Source: a virus
IMG/VR virus record: IMGVR_UViG_3300021961_000019
Direction: 5' to 3' (one strand)
DNA: 64,000 nt
Made by a program: the position numbers and the translations under genes. Positions 45,369 to 59,607 of this stretch are shown here, in pieces. The notes below the pieces were generated by a model. That model made no database searches and had not been told where the DNA came from. It saw nothing but the letters and a program-made list of their open reading frames with translations. The stretch's first letter is position 1. Every line of letters begins with the position of its first letter.

Positions 45369-45376
45369 AGTATCAA

Positions 45377-45601: not shown

Positions 45602-45736
45602 TCAGATTACAATTGATGCCTTAGTTCCACATGCGATGAAGAAGTCAACCATGGAACATGCCTCAGAGTAAGTTACAAACCAGAGGTTCTTCCACATGGC
45701 AGAGGTAGGACACCAGAAGCGAACTTGTGTTTTCAT
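45602..45736 (-). CDS. Small early hypothetical protein (44 aa)
   Basis: Hand translation MKTQVRFWCPTSAMWKNLWFVTYSEACSMVDFFIACGTKASIVI. Confidence 0.65.
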   Translation of the reverse strand: MKTQVRFWCPTSAMWKNLWFVTYSEACSMVDFFIACGTKASIVI

Positions 45737-45745
45737 GATTCAATC

Positions 45746-45925
45746 TCAGTTGGAACATGCAGGGGGAACATATGAAGAATCGATCTGTACAACACCATCG
45801 ATGACAAACTCTTGAAGAATGTAATTGATAGAAATGCCATACTGAATGCTCATTGCCTCTAACTCCCTTCGAATGTCTTCAGTACCTTGAAAGGGGCGAA
45901 AGTGAGTGGGTTGATAGTCTTTCAT
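45746..45925 (-). CDS. Small early hypothetical protein
   Basis: MKDYQPTHFRPFQG...; probable start 45925. Confidence 0.6.
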   Translation of the reverse strand: MKDYQPTHFRPFQGTEDIRRELEAMSIQYGISINYILQEFVIDGVVQIDSSYVPPACSN

Positions 45926-45939
45926 GATTCGAAGTGAGA

Positions 45940-46068
45940 TTAACGAACAGGGCGAACAGGAGCAGGTTGAAGAACAGGTTTTGCCTTGATGATTGCGTTC
46001 TTGCATTGTGCTTCAATCTCAGAAAGAGTGAAGCGAGTGGGAGTGTTCAGACGTTGACGCTTGTTCAT
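45940..46068 (-). CDS. Small early hypothetical protein (42 aa)
   Basis: Hand translation MNKRQRLNTPTRFTLSEIEAQCKNAIIKAKPVLQPAPVRPVR; first gene after the cassette at 46111. Confidence 0.6.
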   Translation of the reverse strand: MNKRQRLNTPTRFTLSEIEAQCKNAIIKAKPVLQPAPVRPVR

Positions 46069-46110
46069 GATTTGAATGGGAATGGTGTGGGAGAGTTGTT
46101 CCCCTCCCGT

Positions 46111-46162
46111 ATCTTCATCATAGGGTGCTGAAGACCGTTGGAGGGTTTTTCAGCGTATCTGC
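46111..46162 (-). promoter_or_regulatory. Class I early promoter cassette copy
   Basis: GCAGATACGCTGAAA-N25-TATGATGAAGAT; CCCTCC at the -35 position. Confidence 0.8.
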
Positions 46163-46163
46163 T

Positions 46164-46415
46164 TCAGACTTCTTCATCCAGCAGATTGGGGACTTCTTTA
46201 ATCTCAACCCCGAAATCTTCCAACACTTCATCACCATAAACATCACGAATCTCATTGATAAGTTCCGACTCGGAGTAGTTGTTAAGATTCTCCACAAGAG
46301 TATCAAACACAAACTGTTCCATCGATTTCGTGTCCATGCTGTCCATAATCTGTTCAGCATACTTCTCAACCAGTTCGGAGAAGTTGTCAGTCCAGGTGTA
46401 AGCGTTGTTGTTCAT
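46164..46415 (-). CDS. Small acidic early protein
   Basis: 83 aa ORF in the early array. Confidence 0.7.
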   Translation of the reverse strand: MNNNAYTWTDNFSELVEKYAEQIMDSMDTKSMEQFVFDTLVENLNNYSESELINEIRDVYGDEVLEDFGVEIKEVPNLLDEEV

Positions 46416-46419
46416 GGTT

Positions 46420-46635
46420 TCAGTTCAGAATGATACGATAGTCGATTTCCAGGATGCACCAACCGGTTGCACAACTAATCTCTTCGATTAGATCCTCTTC
46501 ATCATCTGCCTCCCAGATTTGACCAACATACTCTTGATTGAGTTTTTCTTCAGTACAGATCTGGTCACTCAAAGACCAATCATCTTCACAATCAAGAGAG
46601 CAATCAAACTCAATTTTGGTGATTTGGAATTGCAT
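46420..46635 (-). CDS. Small acidic early protein
   Basis: 71 aa; WEADDEEDLIEEISCATGWCI. Confidence 0.7.
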   Translation of the reverse strand: MQFQITKIEFDCSLDCEDDWSLSDQICTEEKLNQEYVGQIWEADDEEDLIEEISCATGWCILEIDYRIILN

Positions 46636-46638
46636 GAT

Positions 46639-46818
46639 TCAAACCAGTTCGGATTGCATTTCGACCTCTAAGGTCTTGAACTTGAAGTAATCATAACCGT
46701 CAACTTCTACCACCTCTTGCATGTACTTTTCAGCAGCAGAGAGACAGTCAAACAAACGAAGGGAAGAGAAATCTTCACCTTCATAATCGAATCCACCGAT
46801 CACAGAGTAGACTTTCAT
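46639..46818 (-). CDS. Small early protein
   Basis: MKVYSVIGGFDYEGE...; start coupled to the upstream stop. Confidence 0.7.
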   Translation of the reverse strand: MKVYSVIGGFDYEGEDFSSLRLFDCLSAAEKYMQEVVEVDGYDYFKFKTLEVEMQSELV

Positions 46819-46988
46819 CACAGATCAATCACGACGGAGTAGTATGCAACAGAGGAAGGAACTCCGCTTAAAGCAAGCGAACCGTTCCGGGAATCGCAAT
46901 AGTCTTGCGCTTCATCATAGGACTCAAAAGGTCCAACGTACTCTGGGGATTCCAGAGACAGAGAATCAAATCGAACGGTGTGGGTCAT
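46818..46988 (-). CDS. Small early protein (56 aa)
   Basis: Hand translation MTHTVRFDSLSLESPEYVGPFESYDEAQDYCDSRNG...; follows cassette and SD. Confidence 0.7.
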   Translation of the reverse strand: MTHTVRFDSLSLESPEYVGPFESYDEAQDYCDSRNGSLALSGVPSSVAYYSVVIDL

Positions 46989-47005
46989 GGGTGGTTTCCT
47001 TTGGT

Positions 47006-47057
47006 ATCTTCATCATAGGGTGCTGGAACCCATTGAAGGGTTTTTCAGCACATGTGC
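47006..47057 (-). promoter_or_regulatory. Class I early promoter cassette copy
   Basis: GCACATGTGCTGAAA-N25-TATGATGAAGAT; CCCTTC at -35. Confidence 0.85.
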
Positions 47058-47058
47058 A

Positions 47059-47208
47059 TCAGAGTTCATCCCTCATTTCAGAAAGTTTATCGTAGATCAG
47101 AGATACATCTGCACCCACGATTTCACTTACCTCAGACCAATCATCATGAAACTCAATGAGGGCAAGCAGAGCATCAAGTTCATCAAACGTGAGAGTTACT
47201 TTTTCCAT
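47059..47208 (-). CDS. Small acidic early protein (49 aa)
   Basis: Hand translation MEKVTLTFDELDALLALIEFHDDWSEVSEIVGADVSLIYDKLSEMRDEL. Confidence 0.7.
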   Translation of the reverse strand: MEKVTLTFDELDALLALIEFHDDWSEVSEIVGADVSLIYDKLSEMRDEL

Positions 47209-47210
47209 GA

Positions 47211-47381
47211 TCAGAAACCGTTGAGAAAGTTAGCAAGTGCTTCATCATACTCCTCTTTGGAGTTAAACACCTTTCCACCAACTGTGCGGGGATAGGTAGA
47301 CTCTTTAGCAGGAGTTTGCGTCTCAGCGACACTGTAACCCTTCTCCAGAAGGGTCTGAACGTAGGGGTTGGAATGGGTCAT
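47211..47381 (-). CDS. Small early protein (56 aa)
   Basis: Hand translation MTHSNPYVQTLLEKGYSVAETQTPAKESTYPRTVGGKVFNSKEEYDEALANFLNGF. Confidence 0.75.
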   Translation of the reverse strand: MTHSNPYVQTLLEKGYSVAETQTPAKESTYPRTVGGKVFNSKEEYDEALANFLNGF

Positions 47382-47396
47382 GGGTCTTTCTTTGGT

Positions 47397-47448
47397 ATCT
47401 TCATCATAACCCCTCCAGGGCGGTTGGAGGGGTTTTCAGCACTTGTGC
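47397..47448 (-). promoter_or_regulatory. Class I early promoter cassette copy (perfect 9-bp spacer hairpin)
   Basis: GCACAAGTGCTGAAA-N25-TATGATGAAGAT; spacer ACCCCTCCA-7 nt-TGGAGGGGT. Confidence 0.85.
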
Positions 47449-47449
47449 C

Positions 47450-47773
47450 TCAGTTGAGACGCATTCCGCTGAAGAAGGGAATTGCGGATCCGTCATACTG
47501 AACGAACCACTCACCTTTCTTTTGGAACACATACTCACCAGGCATTCCGTGTGCCTGAAGAATAGCGTTCAGACGGGATTTGGTGGTGTTGGTCCTCCAA
47601 CCACCATCAAACAATTCGACGAACGTTTCACCAATCCGAGCGATCAGATTGTCGTACAGATACACATCAGAAACATGAGAATATGCGATCACTTCAGTGT
47701 TATCTTTCTTCCAATCCTTGTGCTGCAGGATTGCATCGTTCATTTGGGATTCGATCTTACGCATGGTGCGCAT
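47450..47773 (-). CDS. Conserved early hypothetical protein
   Basis: MRKIESQMNDAI...VYLYDNLIARI...DGGWRTNTTKSRLNAIL; start 47773 or 47764. Confidence 0.8.
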   Translation of the reverse strand: MRTMRKIESQMNDAILQHKDWKKDNTEVIAYSHVSDVYLYDNLIARIGETFVELFDGGWRTNTTKSRLNAILQAHGMPGEYVFQKKGEWFVQYDGSAIPFFSGMRLN

Positions 47774-47816
47774 GGTGGGAAAAGCGATGGGATGATGGGA
47801 GGTCTTCCCCCCTGGT

Positions 47817-47871
47817 AACTTCATCATACCCCCTCAGGGGTCGTTGGCGGGTTTTTCAGCAGAAGTGATGC
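47817..47871 (-). promoter_or_regulatory. Class I early promoter cassette copy
   Basis: TGCTGAAA-N25-TATGATGAAG; CCCGCC at -35. Confidence 0.8.
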
Positions 47872-47885
47872 AGATCTTCACAATA

Positions 47886-47914
47886 TAAAAAATCCGGGGT
47901 TACCAGCCCCGGAT
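47886..47914 (-). terminator. Rho-independent terminator
   Basis: ATCCGGGG-7 nt-CCCCGGAT followed by a T-tract on the minus strand. Confidence 0.85.
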
Positions 47915-48031
47915 CATTAACCCAACACCTATCCACTATTGATATCATTATCTCCGTTCAACTTCGATTCGGTTCCCATCCGAATCGGGGTGACTTTTCT
48001 TATAGCAGCGGCAAACCCTTTCCGCTCTTAC

Positions 48032-48292
48032 TTAGAAGTCGAAGACCTCAGAATTCAGTTCAATTGTATTCACCTTCTTGCTGTTATACTTAACGCCGTC
48101 CGGAGTTTCTTTTACTCCACACTCATAGAGTGCTTCCACGACATCTTCATAGTTGCCGAGTTCACCCGCAAGAGCATAGAGACCTTCATCATTCTGCAAC
48201 CAGAGTGCAACATTCCAGGTTTCATAGTTGGTCCAACCATTATAACCTTTGTCGAAAACATTGGTCTTGTGAATGTCAAAGATGGTGTTCAT
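48032..48292 (-). CDS. Conserved phage hypothetical protein (YNGWTNYETWNVALW family)
   Basis: YNGWTNYETWNVALWLQNDEGLY motif; probable start 48292. Confidence 0.8.
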   Translation of the reverse strand: MNTIFDIHKTNVFDKGYNGWTNYETWNVALWLQNDEGLYALAGELGNYEDVVEALYECGVKETPDGVKYNSKKVNTIELNSEVFDF

Positions 48293-48395
48293 GATCTTAG
48301 AAACAATTGGGTTGGGGTTGGGGGGTGCCCTTAGTTCCCCCCGTTGTGGCAGTTGTGCCACTTCCTAGAGCAGAGTGGAGGTCTTTCCCTCCCGT

Positions 48396-48447
48396 ATCTT
48401 CATCATACCCCCCGGAAGGGGTTCGGAAGGTTTTTCAGCAGATGTGC
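48396..48447 (-). promoter_or_regulatory. Class I early promoter cassette copy
   Basis: GCACATCTGCTGAAA-N25-TATGATGAAGAT; CCTTCC at -35. Confidence 0.85.
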
Positions 48448-48448
48448 A

Positions 48449-48676
48449 TCAGAAGTGAGATTCGGACCAATCAAGCATTTCGCTATACTTAGCGATGCCA
48501 TCATAGCAACGCTTGCTCATCTCATGATCACCGTCTGCAACATAACCTTTCAGGAATTCGAAGCAATACTTGATACGCAGTTCAGGTGCGATTGCTTCCA
48601 GTTGTTGACGCTTACGCTCTTGATAGGAGTTGTAAGCAAACATTTCACGATCTTCGAATGACATTTGGTGAAACAT
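48449..48676 (-). CDS. Conserved early hypothetical protein
   Basis: MFHQMSFEDREMFAYNS...ELRIKYCFEFLKGY; probable start 48676. Confidence 0.75.
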   Translation of the reverse strand: MFHQMSFEDREMFAYNSYQERKRQQLEAIAPELRIKYCFEFLKGYVADGDHEMSKRCYDGIAKYSEMLDWSESHF

Positions 48677-48698
48677 GGTGTGGGTCCTTTCCTTTGGT

Positions 48699-48753
48699 AT
48701 CTTCATCATACCCCCCAGAGAGGGTCTGGAGGGTTTTTCAGCAGAAGTGATGC
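48699..48753 (-). promoter_or_regulatory. Class I early promoter cassette copy
   Basis: TGCTGAAA-N25-TATGATGAAGAT; CCCTCC at -35; SD AAAGGA follows. Confidence 0.85.
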
Positions 48754-48754
48754 A

Positions 48755-49153
48755 TTACCACTTCTCCATCCACCCATGGCGGGTGCATTCTAAAGTAACG
48801 CCAGCACGGTTGATGTTACGATCAAAATCAACATTTGCGGCACGAAGTGCATCATGATCAATCTTGGTTGCATCACAGTAGAATTTGATCGCACCATATG
48901 CAGTTTGAATCCTAGCAGCACCGTTGAGTTCATTATACTCAAGAACGGTATACTTGGTGAAATCAGTGCCGCCGCGGCCAACGGCTTTACCATCTACAAC
49001 TGCATCATCTTTGATGTCGATATAATGCTCCTGAAATCCGTATGCATCATAATAGCGACCATTCGGAAGTGCAACACCGGGAGCACATGCAGTGGTGAGA
49101 ATAGCAAGACCAGCAACCAGAATGCCGGTGAGTTTGGTGAGAGTGGCAGTCAT
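48755..49153 (-). CDS. Putative exported protein / lipoprotein
   Basis: Signal-like N-terminus KLTGILVAGLAILTTAC with a Cys at a lipobox-like position. Confidence 0.65.
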   Translation of the reverse strand: MTATLTKLTGILVAGLAILTTACAPGVALPNGRYYDAYGFQEHYIDIKDDAVVDGKAVGRGGTDFTKYTVLEYNELNGAARIQTAYGAIKFYCDATKIDHDALRAANVDFDRNINRAGVTLECTRHGWMEKW

Positions 49154-49176
49154 GGTGTGGGTCCTCCCCTTTCTGT

Positions 49177-49226
49177 TATCAGTATAGGGTCCCGCAGGAC
49201 CCCGACTGAGTTTTCAGCACATGTGC
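49177..49226 (-). promoter_or_regulatory. Class I early promoter cassette copy (TATACT variant)
   Basis: GCACATGTGCTGAAA-N25-TATACT. Confidence 0.75.
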
Positions 49227-49498
49227 AGCACAGGTGCTGGTTGAACAGAAAAGGTGCCCAATCGGTCACAAGAGATAGAAACAGCGTGAGAAGGTGCTCC
49301 ACACTCATCTACAACTTCCCACCAATCTTCACCTTCTTGAATCACAACATAACCGAAACATCCAGCGATGGAAAGAGACTTAAGGCCCCACTTTTCTGCA
49401 TGAGTCTGATAATTCCACCAAGTCCTTTCGTTATAGAATTTGGAGGAATCATCAGAGCGAGGACCAAACGTGATGCAGGTGAATTTGAATTTGTCCAT
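49214..49498 (-). CDS. Early hypothetical protein
   Basis: 94 aa ORF. Confidence 0.6.
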   Translation of the reverse strand: MDKFKFTCITFGPRSDDSSKFYNERTWWNYQTHAEKWGLKSLSIAGCFGYVVIQEGEDWWEVVDECGAPSHAVSISCDRLGTFSVQPAPVLHMC

Positions 49499-49500
49499 GA

Positions 49501-49656
49501 TCAGGAGATTGCACGAAGGTGTTTACGGGTGTCGAAACCTTTAGCATGTTCTTCCTTGCGCAACTTAGCAGCAAGTTCTGCAAAGGTATAGGGTTGATTT
49601 GCAGCAATCATGATTAATTGCTGAGATTGCAAATCACACGCCAATTGGTAAGACAT
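49501..49656 (-). CDS. Small early protein
   Basis: MSYQLACDLQSQQLIMIAANQPY...; probable start 49656. Confidence 0.55.
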   Translation of the reverse strand: MSYQLACDLQSQQLIMIAANQPYTFAELAAKLRKEEHAKGFDTRKHLRAIS

Positions 49657-49663
49657 GGTGAAT

Positions 49664-49783
49664 TCAGTTGGCAAGAGCGTGACAATGAGCAAGGGCACCA
49701 TAAGTCCTGAGAGCATACTGATATGCTTCAACTTTGGTGTAGAAGCACGCCACGGGACTTCCTTTGTAGTAGAGAGTGAACAT
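49664..49783 (-). CDS. Small early protein (39 aa)
   Basis: Hand translation MFTLYYKGSPVACFYTKVEAYQYALRTYGALAHCHALAN; strong SD GGAGG after the cassette. Confidence 0.65.
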   Translation of the reverse strand: MFTLYYKGSPVACFYTKVEAYQYALRTYGALAHCHALAN

Positions 49784-49803
49784 GGTGGGTCTCCTCCTTT
49801 GGT

Positions 49804-49855
49804 ATCTTCATCATACCCCCTCAGGACCCCCCGGAGGGTTTTTCAGCATCGATGC
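49804..49855 (-). promoter_or_regulatory. Class I early promoter cassette copy
   Basis: GCATCGATGCTGAAA-N25-TATGATGAAGAT; CCCTCC at -35. Confidence 0.85.
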
Positions 49856-49856
49856 G

Positions 49857-50141
49857 TCACATACGTTCACGCATCATCCGGTGAGCATGAGATTCTACAA
49901 CTTTTAGTCCATCTTCTGTAGATGATACAAACCACGCTGCACATGTGCTTCCGTTGAGTGCAACTTCATCAGCAATCTTCCACGAATTCCCATAATATTG
50001 AATCAGCACGTAGTAATCATCAACTGCGCCAGCAATGAGTTGATTGAATGCATGGTAAACAGTATACTCATCTTCATGACGAACATGATGATTAAAAATA
50101 TTTCCATCTTCTAGAAGACGTGCGGTGATGATTTCAAACAT
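49857..50141 (-). CDS. Early hypothetical protein
   Basis: 94 aa ORF following a degenerate cassette. Confidence 0.65.
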   Translation of the reverse strand: MFEIITARLLEDGNIFNHHVRHEDEYTVYHAFNQLIAGAVDDYYVLIQYYGNSWKIADEVALNGSTCAAWFVSSTEDGLKVVESHAHRMMRERM

Positions 50142-50167
50142 GGTGGGTCTTTGATCTCAACAATGTC

Positions 50168-50208
50168 AGCATATGCCCCTCAGGGCCCCCTGCAGGGTAT
50201 TTCAGCAG
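50168..50208 (-). promoter_or_regulatory. Degenerate class I cassette
   Basis: TGCTGAAA-N26-TATGCT with a C/G-rich spacer. Confidence 0.55.
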
Positions 50209-50212
50209 ATAT

Positions 50213-50545
50213 TTAGCGGGAGAGCATCACCCGTGCAGCACGACCGCTGTTATAAGTCCACAGAACGGCAGATGCGAATCGATTCTTTACATCTTCACCG
50301 TTCACTTCCCACCATAGTTGTACAGCAGCGATCACATCTTTCACGAATGAGTATACTTTATGCAGGAATGCTTTAATCTCAGTCTCATGCTCTTTTACAT
50401 ATTCGATCACCACAGTTACAATCACTGCCACGAAGGCAACTAGTGTAACAAATTGATTCCAGAGATTCTTATAATCCACTGCCCGAAGATAATCATAAAG
50501 ATCATTCACAGGGGGAAAAGATTTGGCGAAAGGTTGAGTGTTCAT
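50213..50545 (-). CDS. Early membrane protein
   Basis: 110 aa; one hydrophobic segment FVTLVAFVAVIVTVVI. Confidence 0.7.
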   Translation of the reverse strand: MNTQPFAKSFPPVNDLYDYLRAVDYKNLWNQFVTLVAFVAVIVTVVIEYVKEHETEIKAFLHKVYSFVKDVIAAVQLWWEVNGEDVKNRFASAVLWTYNSGRAARVMLSR

Positions 50546-50679
50546 GATTTCAAAAGAATTAATTGTGTGGTGGCAATCCGTCTGCCTCCACGTTCACACC
50601 ATAGCACTCCCAGGACCACGTGACGTGCTGCAGATACGAATCTTAACCGCAGCATCATGCATCATGTTACACGTGTATA

Positions 50680-50841
50680 CTACCAGAGATCATCTGTGTT
50701 GAGTTCTTTTACATCTACCTCTAGATGTTCACCACCTTCAAGATTTAAAATAGTATCCCAATCTAAATCTTGAGGATCAAAATCATCCATAACTTCTAGA
50801 TCTAGAGTAATTCTGTACCTATGCATCTGTGCGTATACCAT
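50680..50841 (-). CDS. Small acidic protein (53 aa)
   Basis: Hand translation MVYAQMHRYRITLDLEVMDDFDPQDLDWDTILNLEGGEHLEVDVKELNTDDLW. Confidence 0.7.
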   Translation of the reverse strand: MVYAQMHRYRITLDLEVMDDFDPQDLDWDTILNLEGGEHLEVDVKELNTDDLW

Positions 50842-50924
50842 AAGAACCATCTGAACTCTATGTGTATTATACCGCGCTTAGATTAATAAGGCAAGCGTTG
50901 AATGTATATATGCAGCATGTGTAA

Positions 50925-51411
50925 ATCTAGTGTACTTATGTGAAGTATGTACATGAATCTAGATGTGTATATGCAGCATACATGAATCTAGATGTATATG
51001 TGTATGATGTGAATCTAGTTGCATATGTGCAGCAGATCTAGTGCAATCTAGTTGTGTATATGATGTGCTGTAATCTAGTTGCAGAAATCTAGTTGCATAT
51101 GTGCAGCAGATCTAGTTGTGTTTCAGCGGACCCGTGGCATTTCTGCAGCGTCCCTGGGGCAAATTTTCCGCGTCCCGTGGTTGACAAACTGCGCGTCCGG
51201 TGCTAAGCTGTCCAAGATCACAAGACCTGGGGGCATTTAAATGATCATAAGTGTATTAAAGATCTAGTTACATGATGTATAGATGATTTAATACATGATG
51301 ATGATTAATCTAGTTGTGTATATGATGATTAATCTAGTACATGAATCTAGTTGTGTATATGATGATGAATCTAGTTACATCTAGTTGTATAATACATGAT
51401 GATTAATCTAG
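50925..51411 (+). repeat. Array of 16 co-oriented ATCTAG-core repeats in two blocks
   Basis: ATCTAG at 50925, 50957, 50986, 51013, 51036, 51046, 51073, 51087, 51110 and at 51262, 51308, 51332, 51345, 51369, 51379, 51406; extended unit AATCTAGTTGTGTATATGATG. Confidence 0.92.
51181..51209 (+). promoter_or_regulatory. Sigma70-type promoter between the repeat blocks
   Basis: TTGACA-17 nt-TAAGCT with an extended -10 TG at 51201-51202. Confidence 0.78.
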
Positions 51412-51615
51412 TTGTGTATACATTGTTTAAAGAGATAATAAGATCAATATAAGTATCGTACCCATCCATATACCCATTAAAGCAACAGTTAATTGAAACA
51501 TAATACTATCCATATCTAATGGTTTATACTCCTATTATAGCACACTTAAACCTTTTATTTATTCCTCTAAAACATATATATTTTTACGTTTAACACAAAC
51601 ATCATATTATTCATT

Positions 51616-52422
51616 ATGACAAATACGGGCACAATATACCTCATTCTCAATCGTGTCAATGGACATAAGTATGTGGGTCAAACTAGGCAACAATTGAACA
51701 CCAGATGGAAGGCACATCTGACTGAAGCACGTTCTTATCCTACTCGTCCTCTCTACTATGCAATTAACAAATATGGTGCAGATAAGTTTACCATTAAGGT
51801 ATTAGAAGAATGTTCGGTAGATAAGTTAAATGAAAGAGAAGTGTATTGGATTTCTAAACTCAATACCTTTAAAAGTGGTGTCGATTATAATGCAACTGCA
51901 GGTGGTGATTTCTTTGAACATACAGAGGCTACTAAACAAAAGATCTCTGAAGGAATGAGAAAGGTAGAGCGTTCGGATGAATGGATACAGAACATGTCTA
52001 CCTCATTAAAGGAAAAGGCAAAGAAAGAACCTTGGGGGTTTTTGAATGCAAAGAATAGAGCAGATGGTAAACATACACGTCGTAGAGTTAAAGGTGTATG
52101 TGTCACCACTGGAAAAGAGAGAATCTTTGAAAGTATGACTGAAGCAGCAAGACAGGTGAATGGAAAGAGTGGTAATATCTGTGCTGCGATCAAGAACAAT
52201 TGGATGGCATATGGTTACAGATGGGAAAAGATTGATACACGTCCCAGTAAGTTACAATGCTATGGTGTGAATAAGCATACTGGTGAACAAACAGTCGTCT
52301 TTCCCAGTATTAAAGCTGCATGTCGTTATATGGGTGGAGATCATGATTCTGGTATTCGCAAAGCATTAAAAGCACCAGGAGTGTCCACATGGTATGGATA
52401 CTACTGGTTCTTTGTGGCATAG
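51616..52422 (+). CDS. GIY-YIG (Seg-like) homing endonuclease with C-terminal NUMOD1-like repeats
   Basis: GTIYLILNRVNGHKYVGQT...R...H...E.YWI...N; two C-terminal modules (IFESMTEAARQV, VFPSIKAACRYM); opposite strand to its neighbours. Confidence 0.9.
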   Translation: MTNTGTIYLILNRVNGHKYVGQTRQQLNTRWKAHLTEARSYPTRPLYYAINKYGADKFTIKVLEECSVDKLNEREVYWISKLNTFKSGVDYNATAGGDFFEHTEATKQKISEGMRKVERSDEWIQNMSTSLKEKAKKEPWGFLNAKNRADGKHTRRRVKGVCVTTGKERIFESMTEAARQVNGKSGNICAAIKNNWMAYGYRWEKIDTRPSKLQCYGVNKHTGEQTVVFPSIKAACRYMGGDHDSGIRKALKAPGVSTWYGYYWFFVA

Positions 52423-52865
52423 AGTAGCACAATACAAACACCAACTGCAATACCAATCAAAGTGAATGGTGCAATGTCATTCACTCCCAAAGGTAATCTT
52501 TGATAGGTCTCAGAATCATCAGATCCATTTCTACACTTAGATGAAGATGCATAATCCCAGATTACTCTTGGTCCTTCGGTGTAGAACATTTTTGGATAAT
52601 CATAATATCCAATCTCTGCCTTGCAGATCTTACCTGAAGAGATTACATATCCACCTGAACAGGAGACTTCAAATCCTTCTTCTGTTTCAATCAGATGAAG
52701 ATCAGATTGCTCAAAATGCTTGGCTTTGATGCCTCTTGACCTTGCATTAAAGTGAGATTGCATTTCCTTACACTCTGCCTTAAATGGAAGATTCGCAGCA
52801 GAAACAGAACCACCTGTCGTAAGTGCAAGGAATGCAATTAAAGATGCAATAGTAGATTTAAGCAT
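52401..52865 (-). CDS. Putative membrane-anchored exported protein
   Basis: Signal peptide MLKSTIASLIAFLALTTGGSVSA and a C-terminal hydrophobic helix; probable start 52865. Confidence 0.7.
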   Translation of the reverse strand: MLKSTIASLIAFLALTTGGSVSAANLPFKAECKEMQSHFNARSRGIKAKHFEQSDLHLIETEEGFEVSCSGGYVISSGKICKAEIGYYDYPKMFYTEGPRVIWDYASSSKCRNGSDDSETYQRLPLGVNDIAPFTLIGIAVGVCIVLLYATKNQ

Positions 52866-53490
52866 GATACTCTTTTTCACAATACTGACATGTAAGAACA
52901 TGTTGCATTTCATCATTTCTCACTTCACGAATCACATCCGCAAGTGTTTCCAGTTTGGGACGACGTTGAAGTTCGCATTGTGGTTGAAACTTGTCAAATA
53001 GATACTGATTCTCCTCATTCACATAATAGGTGATTGCGGCAGCAGGAACTGGTCCTTTCAGCAGATCTGAGTCAGATTGAAGAAACTTATCATAGGTCCC
53101 ATAGGCATGTTTCTCAATCTCTGCCATCATGTAGTATGCTGCTGGGGCATCTACCACATACAAAATCACAACTGCCCAGTAATACAGTAGAGCAGCATGA
53201 TAGGCTATAAATCGATTGATCCATTGCTTGTTGCCACCCAGTTCTTCAAAGATGCGAAGATGATGTTCTTCATTATAGGATTCTGCATAATGCACACTCA
53301 GCCAATCATAGCGATCCCACATACCCAGAGATTGATACAGGTGCAGAACACTCATCCATGAGAAATAAGGTACTCGCGCAACTGTTTCCAATACCCAAAA
53401 TCGTTCGATTGGTGCATTCTTGTAAACAATATCCAGTAGAAATACAACTACTGACACCATAAGATTTGCAATTAAACGTGTCATATCCAC
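52858..53490 (-). CDS. ptox: Plastoquinol terminal oxidase (PTOX, di-iron alternative oxidase family)
   Basis: RFWVLETVARVPYFSW.SVLHLY, ESYNEEHHL, EIEKHAY.TYDKFL, RNDEMQH: di-iron E/ExxH ligands. Confidence 0.95.
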   Translation of the reverse strand: MDMTRLIANLMVSVVVFLLDIVYKNAPIERFWVLETVARVPYFSWMSVLHLYQSLGMWDRYDWLSVHYAESYNEEHHLRIFEELGGNKQWINRFIAYHAALLYYWAVVILYVVDAPAAYYMMAEIEKHAYGTYDKFLQSDSDLLKGPVPAAAITYYVNEENQYLFDKFQPQCELQRRPKLETLADVIREVRNDEMQHVLTCQYCEKEYHA

Positions 53491-53882
53491 ACTCCAATTT
53501 CTTTTCTGGTTGCAATTTGATAATCTTGAAGTTTTCCTCTTACAAAATGAAGCCTACAGAGTGGAGCATCATCATAAGATTCATTACCTCTGTAATTATA
53601 CACCGTTACATAATCTGTCAACTCAACTGGTTTGACCTTTCCATGCTTTCCAGTTGATTTAACTTTGTATTTGAACAAGGCAGACTTCAGAGTTCCATCA
53701 TCAACCCAATTTGGATCTTCTTGAAGTTCACTCGTTCCTGTGTAATCTGTAATCCACAATTGACCAGAAGGATCCATCCAATAGTAATCCATGAAGGAAT
53801 TTAGATCTTTGGTCTGACACTCCACATTTGTAAAACGTGGGCCCAGATCATAAGATGACCTGAAAGTGTCGTACATACCCAT
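53481..53882 (-). CDS. Conserved phage hypothetical protein (MGMYD family)
   Basis: MGMYDTFRSSYDLG...CQTKDL..MDYYWMDPSGQLW. Confidence 0.8.
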   Translation of the reverse strand: MGMYDTFRSSYDLGPRFTNVECQTKDLNSFMDYYWMDPSGQLWITDYTGTSELQEDPNWVDDGTLKSALFKYKVKSTGKHGKVKPVELTDYVTVYNYRGNESYDDAPLCRLHFVRGKLQDYQIATRKEIGVWI

Positions 53883-53885
53883 AAT

Positions 53886-54203
53886 TTAGATCTCCGTTGA
53901 CTTATAATGATTTAGCATGTGTTGAGTATATGTCTTCCAATAAGATAGAAGATCTTCATCGGATGCAGCATTCACAAATTCTTCACTGAATTCATCTCCA
54001 AGTGCGAACAACAGATCATCATTCAGATCCATTTCAATATGTCCGCGATTTAACTCAAACCAAAAGTCATCTGCAATTTCAACTTCTGTTTGTGCAGTTG
54101 AATAGAACATATATCGCATCCAGTGCCAGAATGGCGTCTTGTACAGAAAGATGGTGCGATAGAACAGACTATCCTTAAACTGCTGTAGAAAGGACTTGAA
54201 CAT
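53886..54203 (-). CDS. Hypothetical protein
   Basis: ORF in a dense array; probable start MFKSF at 54203. Confidence 0.6.
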   Translation of the reverse strand: MFKSFLQQFKDSLFYRTIFLYKTPFWHWMRYMFYSTAQTEVEIADDFWFELNRGHIEMDLNDDLLFALGDEFSEEFVNAASDEDLLSYWKTYTQHMLNHYKSTEI

Positions 54204-54351
54204 TTTCAAATTCATAATGAGGTACAACGATACGGACTTCTTCAGATGGATGTGATGCTTCGCGCATCAGAATTGAGATAGAACTTTGTGTTGCATATAC
54301 AATCGGTCCCGTAATCTCTTTATATCTAACAAACGTTCCTATTGAAAACAT
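54175..54351 (-). CDS. Small hypothetical protein (58 aa)
   Basis: Hand translation MFSIGTFVRYKEITGPIVYATQSSISILMREASHPSEEVRIVVPHYEFENVQVLSTAV; fills an ORF-track gap. Confidence 0.65.
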   Translation of the reverse strand: MFSIGTFVRYKEITGPIVYATQSSISILMREASHPSEEVRIVVPHYEFENVQVLSTAV

Positions 54352-54626
54352 AATTCTAAGGGAGATAGTTTAAGTGGCATAGAAGTATAATTCCTTGTGT
54401 CAGAGATATTGACCTTCTTTCCTACTTTCGTTGCATTGATTGGGGCATAATATTCATCCTTTTTGAGAGAATAAAATCCCCAAATACATGAAACTGTCTC
54501 ACCATTGTTATAATCGAATTTGCGATGATGGCGAATCCAGATTGAAAGTACACCACGCTTAAACTCCTGAACTTCATATGAATATCCTTTTGGAGGTTTG
54601 TGATGAAATGATTTGGGAAGTTTCAT
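54339..54626 (-). CDS. Conserved cyanophage hypothetical protein
   Basis: HKPPKGYSYEVQEFKRGVLSIW...IWGFY...YYAPINATKVGK. Confidence 0.8.
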   Translation of the reverse strand: MKLPKSFHHKPPKGYSYEVQEFKRGVLSIWIRHHRKFDYNNGETVSCIWGFYSLKKDEYYAPINATKVGKKVNISDTRNYTSMPLKLSPLELCFQ

Positions 54627-54632
54627 GTTTAT

Positions 54633-54806
54633 TTACACGTCGTATTCTTTATCGGCAGACAGAAGTTCATTGTAATATCGGAGACTTCGAACCTCACTTT
54701 CCAGACGGTGAACCTCATTGACAAGATCATCAACAACTGATCGAAGCCATTCTGGATTGTCACTATCAAAAGAATGTGCCAGCAAATCTACAAGTTTTTC
54801 ATTCAT
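54633..54806 (-). CDS. Small coiled-coil protein (57 aa)
   Basis: Hand translation MNEKLVDLLAHSFDSDNPEWLRSVVDDLVNEVHRLESEVRSLRYYNELLSADKEYDV. Confidence 0.6.
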   Translation of the reverse strand: MNEKLVDLLAHSFDSDNPEWLRSVVDDLVNEVHRLESEVRSLRYYNELLSADKEYDV

Positions 54807-55039
54807 GTCGTAAACTCTCCAAGAACACGGGAAACTTCTTCTTCAACTAGAGCAAACCTTGATGCTCTCACAACTGCTGCCATGATCAAATTGTCATAAG
54901 CATTGTCATAATAGAATTCTGATCGTTCGGCAAGAAGATCGTGACATTCAACATCACTCTCTGCGATGACGTTAATCATCCCACCATACTCGGAAGATGG
55001 AAACGGCACCCAATAATCAACCTCGTAAAGAAATTTCAT
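54803..55039 (-). CDS. Conserved cyanophage hypothetical protein
   Basis: YEVDYWVPFPSSEYGGMINVIAESD.EC.DLL. Confidence 0.8.
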   Translation of the reverse strand: MKFLYEVDYWVPFPSSEYGGMINVIAESDVECHDLLAERSEFYYDNAYDNLIMAAVVRASRFALVEEEVSRVLGEFTT

Positions 55040-55043
55040 TTGC

Positions 55044-55214
55044 TTAAATGTAACCCTCCTGAATAAGAATAGCAGCAGTTCTCTGGTAGGAACCCTGCAA
55101 TGAATTTATCATACCACTTGAGACCAACTCTGTAAAGAGTTCAAGGGTCTCATCAAAGTCAAGCTCACCATTCTCATAATCCATGATCAGATCAACAAGA
55201 CTTGCAGTAATCAT
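55044..55214 (-). CDS. Small conserved protein (56 aa)
   Basis: Hand translation MITASLVDLIMDYENGELDFDETLELFTELVSSGMINSLQGSYQRTAAILIQEGYI. Confidence 0.75.
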   Translation of the reverse strand: MITASLVDLIMDYENGELDFDETLELFTELVSSGMINSLQGSYQRTAAILIQEGYI

Positions 55215-55240
55215 TGGTGCTCCTCAACTCTCATATTGTT

Positions 55241-55297
55241 AGTATATGCGCCATATGCCCCCTGAAGCGACCCGATGTGACAGTTGCGTGAGTGGCA
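55241..55297 (-). promoter_or_regulatory. Class II early promoter (dyad plus TATACT)
   Basis: TGACA-N10-TGGCA (55278-55297), 31 nt upstream of the minus-strand TATACT (55241-55246). Confidence 0.65.
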
Positions 55298-55392
55298 CGT
55301 GTGAGTGGGGAAAGGGGTCCTGTGGGCGCTGCTGGGTGCTGCAGAGCGTCAGATCCCTGTCGTGGACTGGACGGAAACCACGATTTTCTTGC

Positions 55393-55429
55393 AAAAAAAG
55401 GGAGGAAGGACACTAGGACCCTCCTCCCC
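55393..55429 (-). terminator. Rho-independent terminator (imperfect stem)
   Basis: GGGAGGA..GG / CC..TCCTCCC stem plus a 7-nt T-tract on the minus strand. Confidence 0.6.
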
Positions 55430-55452
55430 ATGAAATTGACGATTTTGGCAGA

Positions 55453-55815
55453 TTAACAGCCACCCAGACCAAGTGCAAATCCTTTGGTACGAATGCCCAG
55501 ATGTGAGCATCCATATCCACGATATCCACGATAAGGAGTTCCGTAGTATGGACCAGGAACAGGTGCATAATATGGTGCAGGAGCAACAACCGGAGGTGGA
55601 GCAACATAACCACAGTTATGATAGACAGGTTCTCTAACTATTCCACCGCGAAACCAATTCCCGTATTGGTCATAATATCCGGGTCTGCTATATGTTCTCC
55701 AAGTTGTACATGTTTGCACATAAGTGCGAGTTCTACCATCATACCTAACCTCCTGCGCATTAGCAGAGAAAGGCATCGACAACAATAACAAAGGAAGTAG
55801 CAAAAGTGCTTTCAT
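55453..55815 (-). CDS. Exported Pro/Tyr/Gly-rich protein
   Basis: Signal peptide MKALLLLPLLLLSMPFSANA; VAPPPVVAPAPYYAP; probable start 55815. Confidence 0.7.
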   Translation of the reverse strand: MKALLLLPLLLLSMPFSANAQEVRYDGRTRTYVQTCTTWRTYSRPGYYDQYGNWFRGGIVREPVYHNCGYVAPPPVVAPAPYYAPVPGPYYGTPYRGYRGYGCSHLGIRTKGFALGLGGC

Positions 55816-55842
55816 AATCGATATGCAAAGGTACAATACTAT

Positions 55843-56247
55843 TTAATTGAATGTGAGAGCGAAGAACCTCTGCTCTTCAAGAGCACCAGGAACTTCAAAA
55901 TATTTCCACCCATCATTGGTAAAGATGTATGCATATTCACATCCCTGATCATTTGCACACTCAAGATATTCATTCACATTATCATGAAGCTCAGGCTCAA
56001 TATTTGTCTCGCCCCGGTCGCGGTAATAAAGTACAATATTTTCGTCCAGCGCCATATTATCCCAAGAAGAGTTGCTGTCGATGCAACTAATGTCGCCCCC
56101 ATCAATCAACGACTTGATCTTATCTACAGTGTCATACTTCTCAACAAGTCGCTTGCCCAACCATTCCGGATACGCATCCCAATGGTGGTACACAGATACT
56201 ACATGTCCAGAGGGCAGTTCCAGACCAATCCGGCCGCGAGTTGCCAT
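55843..56247 (-). CDS. Conserved phage hypothetical protein (MATR...YxHWDxYP family)
   Basis: MATRGRIG...SVYHHWDAYPEWLGKRL...EYAYIF. Confidence 0.8.
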   Translation of the reverse strand: MATRGRIGLELPSGHVVSVYHHWDAYPEWLGKRLVEKYDTVDKIKSLIDGGDISCIDSNSSWDNMALDENIVLYYRDRGETNIEPELHDNVNEYLECANDQGCEYAYIFTNDGWKYFEVPGALEEQRFFALTFN

Positions 56248-56268
56248 TTGAGAATCCTCCTTTGGTTC

Positions 56269-56320
56269 AATACCATCATACCCCCCACGGGGTCTCCGGA
56301 GGGGTTTTCAGCATACCTGC
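56269..56320 (-). promoter_or_regulatory. Class I early promoter cassette copy
   Basis: GCAGGTATGCTGAAA-N25-TATGAT; CCCTCC at -35. Confidence 0.8.
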
Positions 56321-56327
56321 AGCATTT

Positions 56328-57314
56328 CTACACACCCATAGCGTCCAGAAGGGGTGAATGTTCTACCTCTGCCACATCAATCTGCAGGTTTTCTATTGAC
56401 TTCTCAAACAACTTCTTGCCTTCTTTGTTAAGATCGAATAAAACGTAATTTCTGCCGGTCAGAAGGGCACTCCTGCCCACCGTCCCAGACCCAGCGCAAG
56501 GATCCAGAACAATAGAATCCTCATCGCTAAACATCCTCAGAATACGATTCAGTAGAGCAACAGGTTTCTGTGTGGCATAATCCAGTTTCTCAACACCCTG
56601 TATCTGCTTAATGTCTGACCACACATCTTTGACTGGAATTCCATCCATCTCATCAAGATACTTCTTGACCCTAGGAATACCAGTATTGGATGAGTATTCA
56701 AGGCGATTGTCATCATGAAGCATCTGCATTCTCTCCTTTGATACATGCCACTGGAGATCATGTCCATTCCATTTATATCTCAGGTTGGGTCTGGATACAA
56801 CGTTTGGTTGACGATTTACCAGGGCAGATGTGTGATACTTCTTCTTGCGATATGGACAAATCTTTGCCTTTCGAACTGTCTCATCATCATACTCTTTATG
56901 CTCTGGATGATAGATGGACTCGGCACCCTTTTGATAGACTATGATCGTATCATGATTGCGCTGCAGTTGTTTCTTTGACTTGTGATTGCCGCCAGAGACC
57001 CATACAATCTCATTCTTAAATCTCTTCTCACCAAACACATCATCAAGAACAATACGAATATGATGTGAGATCTTTGGTTCAACATGCACAACAATATTAC
57101 CACGATCTGTGAGAATACGATGACACTCCTGTAGAAGTGGGCGCATCAACAAATCGCGGTAATCTGCACTTGATTTGAACCTATCATCAAAATGATAGAA
57201 GTCCCTACCGGTACAATATGGTGGATCAATGTAAACAAGATCTACAGTATTCGCTTCAACTTTCTGCAGCAAATCTCTACTGTCACCGATGTTGTACTCG
57301 TTTAAGATCTTCAT
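56328..57314 (-). CDS. DNA amino-methyltransferase (N6-A/N4-C, beta-class motif order)
   Basis: Motif IV VYIDPPY near the N-terminus; YATQKPVALL.RI and motif I VLDPCAGSGT near the C-terminus; probable start MKILNE at 57314. Confidence 0.93.
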   Translation of the reverse strand: MKILNEYNIGDSRDLLQKVEANTVDLVYIDPPYCTGRDFYHFDDRFKSSADYRDLLMRPLLQECHRILTDRGNIVVHVEPKISHHIRIVLDDVFGEKRFKNEIVWVSGGNHKSKKQLQRNHDTIIVYQKGAESIYHPEHKEYDDETVRKAKICPYRKKKYHTSALVNRQPNVVSRPNLRYKWNGHDLQWHVSKERMQMLHDDNRLEYSSNTGIPRVKKYLDEMDGIPVKDVWSDIKQIQGVEKLDYATQKPVALLNRILRMFSDEDSIVLDPCAGSGTVGRSALLTGRNYVLFDLNKEGKKLFEKSIENLQIDVAEVEHSPLLDAMGV

Positions 57315-57828
57315 AGATAAGAACCTCTTTCGCACGTCCTGTATACTTCTTACGAACTGCTGCTGGCACAGAACCAACACAGTATCCTGGCATATTCTTG
57401 TCTTCTAACTCATAACTGGGAATAGCAAGATACTCCCAATCAGAGATGTCCTCATAACCATTTGGTATGATGAACAGTATAACATCAAATGAATTGATTG
57501 CATACCTCACCTGACCATTCTTTGCTCCCTGAGTAGCATTCTTACCCGTGGTCCTTCGGGTCTGTTCCATGTGAAGGGAATTGCCTCCACGATACTTCAC
57601 TTGAATGCGAAGATTGTTGGTAGATAGACGATCATACTTCTCCTGCTGACCATCAGCATCATTAGGAGATGGTTTTGTTTGAATTCCACACTCCTCACGC
57701 AACCACTGGGGTGCGATAATCCTTTCCGTTGGAAATGCAAGAAACTTACCAATCTCTCTGGTGTCACCTTCGGTGATGAGTTCCTGAAACCCAAGGGCAA
57801 CAATTTCTGAAAGTGATGATACTGACAT
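57283..57828 (-). CDS. Putative PD-(D/E)xK-family endonuclease (possible Type II REase)
   Basis: YD(x8)IQVK motif, Y....FDVILF; overlaps the MTase start by 32 nt. Confidence 0.6.
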   Translation of the reverse strand: MSVSSLSEIVALGFQELITEGDTREIGKFLAFPTERIIAPQWLREECGIQTKPSPNDADGQQEKYDRLSTNNLRIQVKYRGGNSLHMEQTRRTTGKNATQGAKNGQVRYAINSFDVILFIIPNGYEDISDWEYLAIPSYELEDKNMPGYCVGSVPAAVRKKYTGRAKEVLIYEDLKRVQHR

Positions 57829-57829
57829 T

Positions 57830-57952
57830 TCAACCACCGTAGATCATTGCAAAGGTGAAAAGCACAAATAAAACAACTGTGAAAACCATCATACCAACAC
57901 CTGCCCAGATTACCCAGTTGGGCATTGGTTCATAATTGTGATTGTGTGCCAT
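57830..57952 (-). CDS. Small membrane protein (40 aa)
   Basis: Hand translation MAHNHNYEPMPNWVIWAGVGMMVFTVVLFVLFTFAMIYGG. Confidence 0.7.
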   Translation of the reverse strand: MAHNHNYEPMPNWVIWAGVGMMVFTVVLFVLFTFAMIYGG

Positions 57953-57995
57953 GGTGTCTCATATCATACAATAGTATTGTAGGGTCCAGAAGACC

Positions 57996-58775
57996 CTACG
58001 GCAGGTCAATCAGCAGATCCGGATCAAATCCGTTGCTGTCACTCTCACCAGTATAACCTGATGGATTGCAAATTACCCTACATCCTTCAATCATGTAATC
58101 AAACCTAGAATGTGTATGACCATGGACCCAATACTTAATCTGGGGATGTGCCAAGATCAGATTATCCAAGTCACTCACATATGCACCATTTGACTCATTA
58201 CGATACTTAGATGCAATTGATTGCAAACTTGGTCCATGATGACTGATGACAAATACATTCTCTGTGAGAGATTGTAGTTGCTTCAGAAGATACTTCTTAC
58301 TCTTCTTATGAAGATCAAGAGTATCATCAGGGTTCAACTTTCTATACTTTGAAGTAATCCTGATGCTACGATAATCATTCATGACTGTAGCAGCATCCAT
58401 CATTTCAAGAACATTTTCATTCCTGAAGTCGGTCCAAAGTGTGAACCCAATGAAGTTCCAGACACCAATCTTTACTGTATCATTATCAAGCACTTGAAAG
58501 TTGCTTGGAAGATTGCTTAGGATCTTTTTCTTAGCACCCTCAACGTTGTATCCATAGTATTCATGATTGCCAAAAACGTAGAGAATCTTATCATAGTTCT
58601 TACTGCATTCATACAAGAAATTATCATAAATGGAATGAATATAACCATCCGTCTTGAAGTGCCTTGCACAGAGAATGTCACCAGCAAGAATGAGAACATC
58701 ACCCTCACCAACAGGGAACACCTGACAGGCAGAGTAGTGCTCAAGATGTAGATCAGAGTAAACTTTGACTTTCAT
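57996..58775 (-). CDS. Calcineurin-like metallophosphoesterase
   Basis: SDLHLE, LAGDI, GNHEYY, SHH, HGHTH motifs. Confidence 0.93.
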   Translation of the reverse strand: MKVKVYSDLHLEHYSACQVFPVGEGDVLILAGDILCARHFKTDGYIHSIYDNFLYECSKNYDKILYVFGNHEYYGYNVEGAKKKILSNLPSNFQVLDNDTVKIGVWNFIGFTLWTDFRNENVLEMMDAATVMNDYRSIRITSKYRKLNPDDTLDLHKKSKKYLLKQLQSLTENVFVISHHGPSLQSIASKYRNESNGAYVSDLDNLILAHPQIKYWVHGHTHSRFDYMIEGCRVICNPSGYTGESDSNGFDPDLLIDLP

Positions 58776-58850
58776 GATGCTCCAATATCATAATTACGCA
58801 GGAGACCCTTCCCAGTGGTCCAGGAAGGGCACTTTACTATGTTTCAGGTG

Positions 58851-59300
58851 TCAGCGGGAATACAAATACCCACCCGACCAATCAGCGTTCTGTAGAACCC
58901 ACTCACGATCTTTAATCAGACGGAGATCGTAACGAACACCTTTGGCAGGTGCTTTCCAAGATGCAGACTTGTAGACTTCACCAGTCTTCTTGTCCACAAA
59001 ACAATGCACAGAACGGGACGCCCCAGCATCAACAAAGATGATCTTGTGATACTTGCGACCACTCTCAATCACATAATCAATGGGCAGTTTACCACTCTTG
59101 AGTTCATCAATAGAACGCTGATGATATCCATGGGCATCTTCTGGAGTGCCAACATAACGCTGATGACCACGAATTGCATACTCGCGATAGTTGTCACGCA
59201 GAGCATCAGTAAGCATCCAGCACCACTTAACCACATTCAACTGAATGGTGTTGCGGGCATCCTGCTGCGCAGCGTAGTCGGCAAAGGTGGTGGCAGTCAT
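58851..59300 (-). CDS. Conserved phage hypothetical protein
   Basis: GRKYHKI...SVHCFVDKKTGEVYKSASWKAPAKGVRY. Confidence 0.82.
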   Translation of the reverse strand: MTATTFADYAAQQDARNTIQLNVVKWCWMLTDALRDNYREYAIRGHQRYVGTPEDAHGYHQRSIDELKSGKLPIDYVIESGRKYHKIIFVDAGASRSVHCFVDKKTGEVYKSASWKAPAKGVRYDLRLIKDREWVLQNADWSGGYLYSR

Positions 59301-59320
59301 GGCAAGGTCTCCCTCTCTTC

Positions 59321-59375
59321 AATACCATCATATCCCCCCAGAGGTCTCTGGAGGGATTTTAATCACATGTGCTGC
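59321..59375 (-). promoter_or_regulatory. Degenerate class I cassette
   Basis: TATGAT with CCCTCC at -35 and a spacer hairpin CCAGAG-GT-CTCTGG; the TGCTGAAA box is degenerate. Confidence 0.65.
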
Positions 59376-59475
59376 AGATCAACCGCGCCAACCATGTGGA
59401 TATAGGATTGAAAGGACTACCATGAAGACGCCAAATGAAATGAACGCACCAAGCATCCAAAAGAATGCGATTCCA

Positions 59476-59607
59476 TCAACTCCGGACATACTCTTGTGCT
59501 CCATTTTTAATTGAATCCACACCTCTATCAAGAATAGATGTGACGCCATTAAATCCAACAGTAGCAACAACTATTCCAATAAAGACGCCAAAGAAAAAAT
59601 TGCTCAT
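59476..59607 (-). CDS. Small membrane protein (43 aa)
   Basis: Hand translation MSNFFFGVFIGIVVATVGFNGVTSILDRGVDSIKNGAQEYVRS. Confidence 0.7.
   Translation of the reverse strand: MSNFFFGVFIGIVVATVGFNGVTSILDRGVDSIKNGAQEYVRS

Follow-up and report, generated by a model that had tools for sequence, protein, structure and literature searches.

Repeated promoter-early stem-loops (PeSLs) have been described in the T4-type phages RB49/phi1, T4/PST and KVP40/nt-1 (Arbiol et al. 2010, PMC2839356; Comeau et al. 2014, PMC4122927), and their stem-loops are found most often in the interval that separates -35 from -10 elements (PMC2839356). The same two papers (PMC2839356, PMC4122927) describe no PeSLs from cyanophages, and a study of S-PM2 found few (PMC4503421). 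Here we analyse a window of 64,000 nt from IMG/VR record IMGVR_UViG_3300021961_000019 (bases 59,880-123,879 of a linear record of 154,286 bp, estimated to be 79% complete). The record comes from an uncultured T4-like cyanomyovirus, and the window contains eleven repeats, hereafter termed cassettes, each of which combines a conserved upstream box, a GC-rich spacer and a TATGAT-type -10 element in front of small genes. With a probability of roughly 0.6, these repeats are composite regulatory cassettes of the PeSL kind.

Like PeSLs, the cassettes are a repeated composite unit of hyperplastic regions filled with small open reading frames (ORFs) of unknown function, run from one gene's stop codon to the Shine-Dalgarno (SD) sequence and start of the next one, and carry a stem-loop built from G and C runs, mostly between the upstream element and the -10; in both, the consensus differs from one phage lineage to another, and genes are gained, lost and reordered between close relatives. 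In the cassettes, however, the 5' arm of the stem lies at the place of the -35, and a conserved element is found further upstream, 25 nt from the -10. PeSLs are further characterised by demonstrated promoter and terminator activity and by the formation of mini-circles; for the present cassettes these properties would be putative. The initial annotation of the window had singled them out as the best candidate for an undescribed system, even while citing a non-canonical early element of Syn9; this claim is overstated, as the architecture matches that of PeSLs (PMC2839356, PMC4122927). The cassettes are a lineage-specific version of PeSL-like units and of the -35-less, early-type promoters reported for T4-like cyanophages, and not a new system.

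In Syn9, too, units of a non-host-like, -35-less type stand before small genes upstream of the baseplate module, and a novel element unlike those of the host reportedly drives the early genes of this phage. As derived from the Syn9 genome, each of its units has an upstream box, a GC-rich spacer, TATTCT or TATACT, and a conserved leader. The end of the Syn9-type box (GTGTCCAC or GTGGCAC, in many cases accompanied by a TGTGACAG partner) is 28-31 nt away from the -10, and the box has at most a GCACA core in common with the cassette box.

Further likenesses extend to promoters outside this group. A -10 combined with an upstream box that begins with TGCT and replaces the -35 recalls the middle promoters of T4, in which the centre of the MotA box is at -30 and 12 +/- 1 bp separate this box from the -10 (Hinton 2010, PMC2988021); the cassette box, in contrast, ends 25 nt from the -10, and no MotA or AsiA domain was found in the record. 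PMM1637/PlmA, a host regulator of the GntR type, recognizes CGRE1, a site of 21-22 nt that begins 55-57 nt upstream of the start sites of yfr2 (Lambrecht et al. 2018, PMC6191309). CGRE1 shares with the cassettes the reliance on a -10 only, a conserved element of about 22 nt at a fixed distance and matching coordinates, whereas its palindrome, with GTTG...CAAC flanks 13-14 nt apart, is missing from the cassette consensus. An A-run at about -41 to -36 in the cassettes lies near the proximal alpha-CTD subsite of UP elements; the latter, however, accompany a -35, while cassette conservation spans a GC-containing box of 22 nt. Class II promoters of NtcA have no -35 and carry sites of the form GTA-N8-TAC, which are not present in the cassette.

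Eleven cassettes of fixed geometry

Within the window, the pattern CTGAAA-N25-TATNNT has nine matches, all of them on the minus strand, against an expectation of 0.40 (the largest number in 100 shuffles was 2). A hidden Markov model (HMM; nhmmer) built from ten copies and run over the whole 154,286-bp record recovered these ten together with a copy absent from the model (59306-59377, E 4e-11), the next match having an E value of 0.26. There are exactly 11 units of about 72 nt each, nine exact and two degenerate, all on the minus strand at 46.1-59.4 kb of the window and all co-oriented with the genes that they precede (11/11); this confinement holds for the 154 kb of a 79%-complete record. If ATTAAA is accepted for the copy at 59.3 kb and TATGCT for that at 50.2 kb, 25 nt separate CTGAAA from the -10 in 11/11 units, and the corresponding spacing in a relative is 25-26 nt. 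Seventeen nt before the -10, the hexamer is CCCTCC in six of the eleven, CCCTTC, CCCGCC and CCTTCC in one each, CCCTGC in one and TCAGTC in one, and a standard -35/-10 scan called none of the 11 units. The dyad GCA-N4-TGC is exact in 6/11 copies.

On these points the initial annotation had read the locus well. Its nine copies with exact 25-nt spacing are the same nine recovered by the pattern search; its counts of the CCCTCC variants (never TTGACA) and of six exact dyads hold; and its two degenerate copies, at 50168 and 59321, are both matched by the HMM with the 25-nt spacing kept. Its general picture of fixed-geometry, -35-less, promoter-like units before small-gene modules is likewise supported. 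Each of the 11 units fills a gap from a stop codon to the following start. CTGAAA itself was considered as a -35 with a 25-nt spacer and rejected, since it matches TTGACA at four of six positions but lies 8 nt past the tolerance of sigma region 4. Two further TATGATGAAG sites (46919 and 47249) lie within ORFs, have no box and were set aside as coding coincidences.

Read along the minus strand, a unit consists of the stop codon of the preceding ORF, the box, the CCCTCC-like hexamer, a free spacer interior, a G-run, TATGAT, about nine conserved bases, the SD and the start codon. The box is conserved over about 22 nt, ends in GCTGAAAA and runs from about -57 to -36 if TATGAT is placed at -12 to -7. 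The stop codon of the upstream ORF lies at most 20 nt from the box in 10/11 units, and five copies have a TGA exactly 13 nt before CTGAAA. An SD is present in most copies, and the start codon follows the -10 after 21-28 nt in eight of them and after 40-49 nt in three. Conservation covers the box, CCC, the G-run, TATGAT and the beginning of the leader; the interior of the spacer is nearly free in sequence, its length being fixed at 25 nt in all eleven. In the three cassettes with long leaders (46095-46125, 47801-47830 and 48380-48410, minus strand), the distant start codon is without an adjacent SD, and a stem pairs a GGGAGG-like SD look-alike with CCTCC(C); this stem may serve translational control or stabilise the 5' end.

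The 29-nt segment between the A-run and the -10 folds at -10.9 to -19.0 kcal/mol in 8/11 copies, and little or no stem is formed in two to three of the eleven. Over 19 cassettes (the 11 described here and eight from the scan of L197, a contig of a relative, one of the eight being doubtful), the mean fold energy is -11.0 kcal/mol, compared with -7.9 kcal/mol for dinucleotide shuffles (Wilcoxon p 0.001). CCCTCC forms the 5' arm of the stem in about eight of the 11 copies; the 3' arm is the G-run abutting TATGAT, and several of the pairs are G:U. Different sequences form stems at the same place, as seen in the copy at 49217 and in the orthologous pair 47859 / L197:2645, and in relatives the arm reads CCYKYC and its pairing partner varies along with it. 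The suggestion that CCCTCC stands in place of a -35 hexamer is not supported: the hexamer lies at the position of a -35, but the feature that is kept is pairing and length.

The individual units, and a terminator found next to one of them, are as follows (window coordinates).

46095-46167, minus strand: cassette 1; nhmmer E 3e-16; TGA 13 nt before CTGAAA; spacer without a stable hairpin (-0.8 kcal/mol); start codon 48 nt after the -10; stem-loop in the leader.
46990-47062, minus strand: cassette 2; TGA 13 nt before the box; CCCTTC; weak hairpin of 5 bp; precedes a 56-aa ORF (46818-46988).
47384-47453, minus strand: cassette 3; TGA 13 nt before the box; stem of 10 pairs with a perfect 7-bp core (CCCCTCC/GGAGGGG), -17.9 kcal/mol; precedes a 56-aa ORF (47211-47381).
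47801-47873, minus strand: cassette 4; CCCGCC, common to the orthologue in L197; precedes a 107-aa ORF (47450-47773, phrog_554).
47891-47915, minus strand: canonical intrinsic terminator (stem of 9 bp, then a T-run), directly upstream of cassette 4 and kept in L197.
48380-48452, minus strand: cassette 5; TGA 13 nt before the box; CCTTCC arm pairing through G:U wobbles; long leader with a stem-loop; precedes a 109-aa ORF (48032-48361).
48683-48754, minus strand: cassette 6; closest fit to the HMM; stem of 10 bp, -17.3 kcal/mol; SD; ATG 28 nt after the -10; precedes a 75-aa ORF (48449-48676).
49160-49230, minus strand: cassette 7 (the copy at 49217); TATACT as the -10; without CCCTCC; an unrelated 7-bp stem (-14.1 kcal/mol) in the same spacer, the 25 nt being kept; precedes a 132-aa ORF (48755-49153).
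49787-49859, minus strand: cassette 8; TGA 13 nt before the box; stem-loop of -15.1 kcal/mol; strong SD (AAGGAGG); precedes small ORFs (49501-49783).
50148-50218, minus strand: cassette 9, degenerate; CTGAAAT, CCCTGC and TATGCT as the -10; hairpin of -12.3 kcal/mol; precedes a 94-aa ORF (49857-50141).
56256-56324, minus strand: cassette 10; follows a DNA-methyltransferase-like ORF (56328-57380); precedes a 134-aa ORF (55843-56247, phrog_1987).
59306-59377, minus strand: cassette 11, with the degenerate box ATTAAA; longest stem, 11 pairs including one G:U, -19.0 kcal/mol; heads a 149-aa ORF (58851-59300), then phosphoesterase-like and methyltransferase-like genes.

Reshuffled modules and unit types in related phages

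The proteins encoded behind the cassettes are mutually unrelated, so that the cassettes are not by-products of gene duplication; seven of ten such cargo proteins belong to PHROGs of unknown function and three are ORFans. A scan of IMG/VR for the box, N24 and the -10 yielded 77 loci, of which three are real, namely contigs L005 (the same as L197), L041 and L069. These carry arrays of 4-7 units and are syntenic with the source record at 75-82% nucleotide identity; a second IMG/VR scan, with a 15-mer of the -10 and leader, gave chance single matches only, except in L005. Modules have been deleted, added and reordered in L197/L069 with respect to the source record, the order being A/B/C/D/E/F/G/H/I here and A/x/y/G+B/C/F+H/I in the relatives, where a slash denotes a cassette. 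One junction in L197 falls inside a cassette, the upstream flank of which corresponds to that of our cassette 4 and the downstream gene to that of our cassette 3, and some of the rearranged junctions are without a cassette. Recombination between cassettes would therefore suffice to explain some of the rearrangements and is not proven for all.

A wider set of loci was fetched with the 258-aa gene located beside the region, which retrieved 80 loci at 83-97% amino acid identity. One of the 80 has the present unit and is the relative already known; in the other 79, with a neighbouring gene 83-88% identical at the amino acid level, this unit was not found. Most of the 16 loci with long upstream flanks that were inspected bear a repeated unit of their own before small ORFs, some of a compact type of about 35 nt and some of a long type, in which a two-part box is followed by a GC-rich spacer, by TATACT and by a leader that is conserved. 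The compact repeat consists of ACTGGGCCC or ACTGAAGCC, AAAGTG and TAGTAT, and occurs 5-11 times per locus in L245, L258, L242, L199 and L256, where it stands before small ORFs upstream of the 258-aa gene, often without an SD. In L199, CTGAAG is found exactly 17 nt from the -10; the same word lies 25 nt away in the present unit. The long type also occurs in Syn9, with six units at 43-51 kb (derived from the genome sequence), and the cassette HMM had no match in the Syn9 genome. Orthologues of the cargo gene at 47450-47773 are located behind the compact type in five loci, behind the long type in one and behind the present unit in L197. As one orthologous gene is headed by three unit types in different lineages, the unit type is a property of the genome, not of the gene. 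A BLAST search of 50,697 phage records with one cassette returned chance matches only, the unit being present in no cultured phage among them, and no Rfam family matched at E up to 1.

Elsewhere in the source record we found canonical TTGACA-17-TAnnnT promoters and three Syn9-like boxes (G000:C1 ~2785, 38337 and 149752, minus strand, outside the window), which read TGACAGTT, a gap and then CTGTCCAC / GTGTCTAC; two of them stand before a TTGAC-type -35, and the third is followed by a hairpin, a T-run and TATGATGACT. The cassette is therefore one promoter type among several in this phage, a second type beside the Syn9-like boxes, and to call it the early promoter class of the phage, as had been proposed, is too broad for a unit present in only 11 copies in 13 kb.

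The cassette region is small-ORF hyperplastic DNA adjoining baseplate genes and is syntenic with the small-ORF cluster of Syn9 upstream of gp25/gp6. Among the genes of the window are those for a gp6-type baseplate wedge protein, a gp14-like head-closure (neck) protein, a plastoquinol terminal oxidase and a GIY-YIG endonuclease, and the gp6 has a nearest match of only 58% identity among cultured phages. All long ORFs from 0 to about 50 kb of the window are on the minus strand; within a module, ORFs abut or overlap, and the cassettes occupy the longer gaps that separate modules. Cassette-bearing segments have a G+C content of 44-47%, whereas the structural genes beside them have 36-39% and the record as a whole about 40%; the elevated segments are at 43500-50500, 54500-57000 and 58500-59500 of the window. 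A promoter-like site, TTGACA-17-TAAGCT, is present at window position 51181 on the plus strand, directed away from the cassette region; it sits in an ORF-free block (50880-51600) with a homologous block in L069. At the extreme end of the record (G000:C1 154083-154207) there are 9/18-nt periodic repeats with GTTGTTCCTG-type words in 6-7 copies, which may belong to a repetitive coding region truncated where the contig stops.

How the cassettes may be read

The explanation that we favour has the host polymerase acting on the -10 plus an upstream contact and the stem-loop acting on read-through RNA, as in PeSLs (PMC2839356). Host RNA polymerase with its primary sigma factor would start about 7 nt past TATGAT from the -10 alone, and the upstream box, at its fixed distance of 25 nt, would compensate for the -35 contact, its A-run being close to the alpha-CTD site of UP elements. 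Initiation from a -10 only is usual for the promoters of marine picocyanobacteria. The stem-loop would form in RNA reading through from the upstream module and would attenuate or end this transcript, or stabilise its 3' end, whereby the modules would be insulated from each other. Finally, the approximately 70 nt that recur at every junction would provide homology for recombination, so that copies would stay alike within a genome and modules would be lost, gained and reordered. Synteny with the Syn9 cluster would place the units in the early temporal class.

Several observations speak against this explanation. PeSLs possess a near-consensus -35 (TTGACA, TTTACW or TTGYVH at 17 nt), which the cassettes are without. 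Cassettes 1 and 2, like the orthologue of cassette 1, have a weak hairpin or none; behind the hairpin comes UAUGAUGA instead of a U-run; and cassette 4 has a canonical terminator in front of it, for which reasons the hairpin may be only a weak terminator. The sense fold is not significantly more stable than the antisense fold (p 0.09), so that the stem may act on either strand. Conservation of the box covers 22 nt, well past an A-run, and the box is the best-kept segment between orthologous cassettes (74% versus 54-61%, in three pairs only), both of which fit a sequence-specific reader better than alpha-CTD; the A-run, moreover, is not common to the units of other lineages. Lastly, start sites, 'early' timing and termination are all features that we infer.

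The strongest competitor is a dedicated activator or a remodelling of sigma, which is possible, if on the doubtful side. A sequence-specific protein bound to the 22-nt box (about -57 to -36) would here recruit RNA polymerase to a -35-less promoter; such a factor could arrive with the virion, be synthesised at a very early time or be one of the host's regulators, and the box dialect of each lineage would be matched to its factor. T4 early promoters, which are boosted by the injected Alt protein, offer a precedent for a virion-delivered modifier (PMC2988021). In favour of such a protein, box and -10 keep a strict phase of 25 nt (25-26) although the spacer between them is free in other respects; further points are the extent of the conserved box and its preservation between orthologues, the full 10-bp palindrome inside the box of two copies, and the promoter coordinates shared with CGRE1 (PMC6191309), although the GTTG...CAAC flanks of the latter are lacking. 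No candidate protein emerged, however: the AsiA and MotA domains (PF09010, PF09114) had no match at E up to 10 in the 79%-complete record, in agreement with the initial annotation, and the sole sigma-like ORF, a 170-codon open frame with a single, weak sigma-region-2 match, looks like the late factor gp55, judging by its size and that match. Nor does the dyad lend much weight to the dimeric activator proposed in that annotation, for GCA-N4-TGC has half-sites of 3 bp, is exact in six copies out of eleven, and its right half decays to YGC in the relative.

In 301 Cyanobiaceae genomes, which were retrieved with Syn9 psbA as bait (a plastoquinol terminal oxidase bait retrieved none), the box plus -10 pattern had about 100 matches, compared with about 40 when the reversed control was used; among the matches listed, many recur near-identically across genomes and none is cassette-like, and no host regulon of cassette design was found in these genomes. 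In one of them (G263), five identical 38-nt pattern matches represent a dispersed repeat unrelated to the cassette. That the unit is not a host-type promoter is borne out. A dedicated factor is further opposed by relatives with a neighbouring protein 83-88% identical that use quite different units, which would necessitate repeated co-replacement of factor and sites. More specifically, the box could be the site of a virion-borne protein or host regulator that replaces -35 recognition at a fixed 25-nt phase; this we put forward tentatively, as rather unlikely. If true, the box dialects would be co-evolving factor/site pairs, cyanomyoviruses would have a MotA-independent takeover of promoters, and the source lineage would hold a second box type beside the Syn9-like one.

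It is improbable that function is limited to the -10 (and the SD) and that the remainder of the unit is kept alike by frequent recombination or gene conversion, in a concerted evolution of mobile junctions, instead of through selection for a binding site. Such a process would agree with the occurrence of the same orthologous gene behind three different units across lineages, with the reshuffling of modules between relatives, with conservation that reaches into the leader, past the needs of a promoter, and with the mini-circles and recombination within PeSLs documented in RB49/phi1 (PMC2839356). The conservation is patterned, however, with a spacer interior that is almost random yet constant in length in 11 copies, whereas homogenisation alone would also keep the spacer sequence; and although leader and box have diverged in the two remote copies (56.3 and 59.3 kb), these still have the spacing and the hairpin.

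Least probable is that the units are not promoters and act as terminators for antisense (plus-strand) transcription, or as pure recombination sites: on the plus strand the hairpin is followed by TTTTTCAG, every unit there being a GC stem-loop with 4-5 T behind it, a terminator scan calls two of them on that strand, and the antisense fold is equal or better in 4/11 copies. Against this, every long ORF up to about 50 kb lies on the minus strand, and both the nearest promoter-like site of the plus strand (51181) and the nearest gene are directed away from the region, which no plus-strand transcript would then be expected to enter. TATGAT, leader, SD and the fixed distance of the start codon are left unexplained, and the G:U pairs in several stems favour sense RNA.

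The repeats bear on the question of how T4-like cyanophages start their infection programme without MotA/AsiA. With eleven natural variants of one geometry, in which the hairpin sequence varies freely while box and spacing are fixed, they would constitute a compact test bed, all the more as related phages put the same genes behind other box types. The comparison with relatives extends PeSL-type modular shuffling to cyanophages and may thereby illuminate how small host-takeover genes are acquired and rearranged by marine and estuarine phages.

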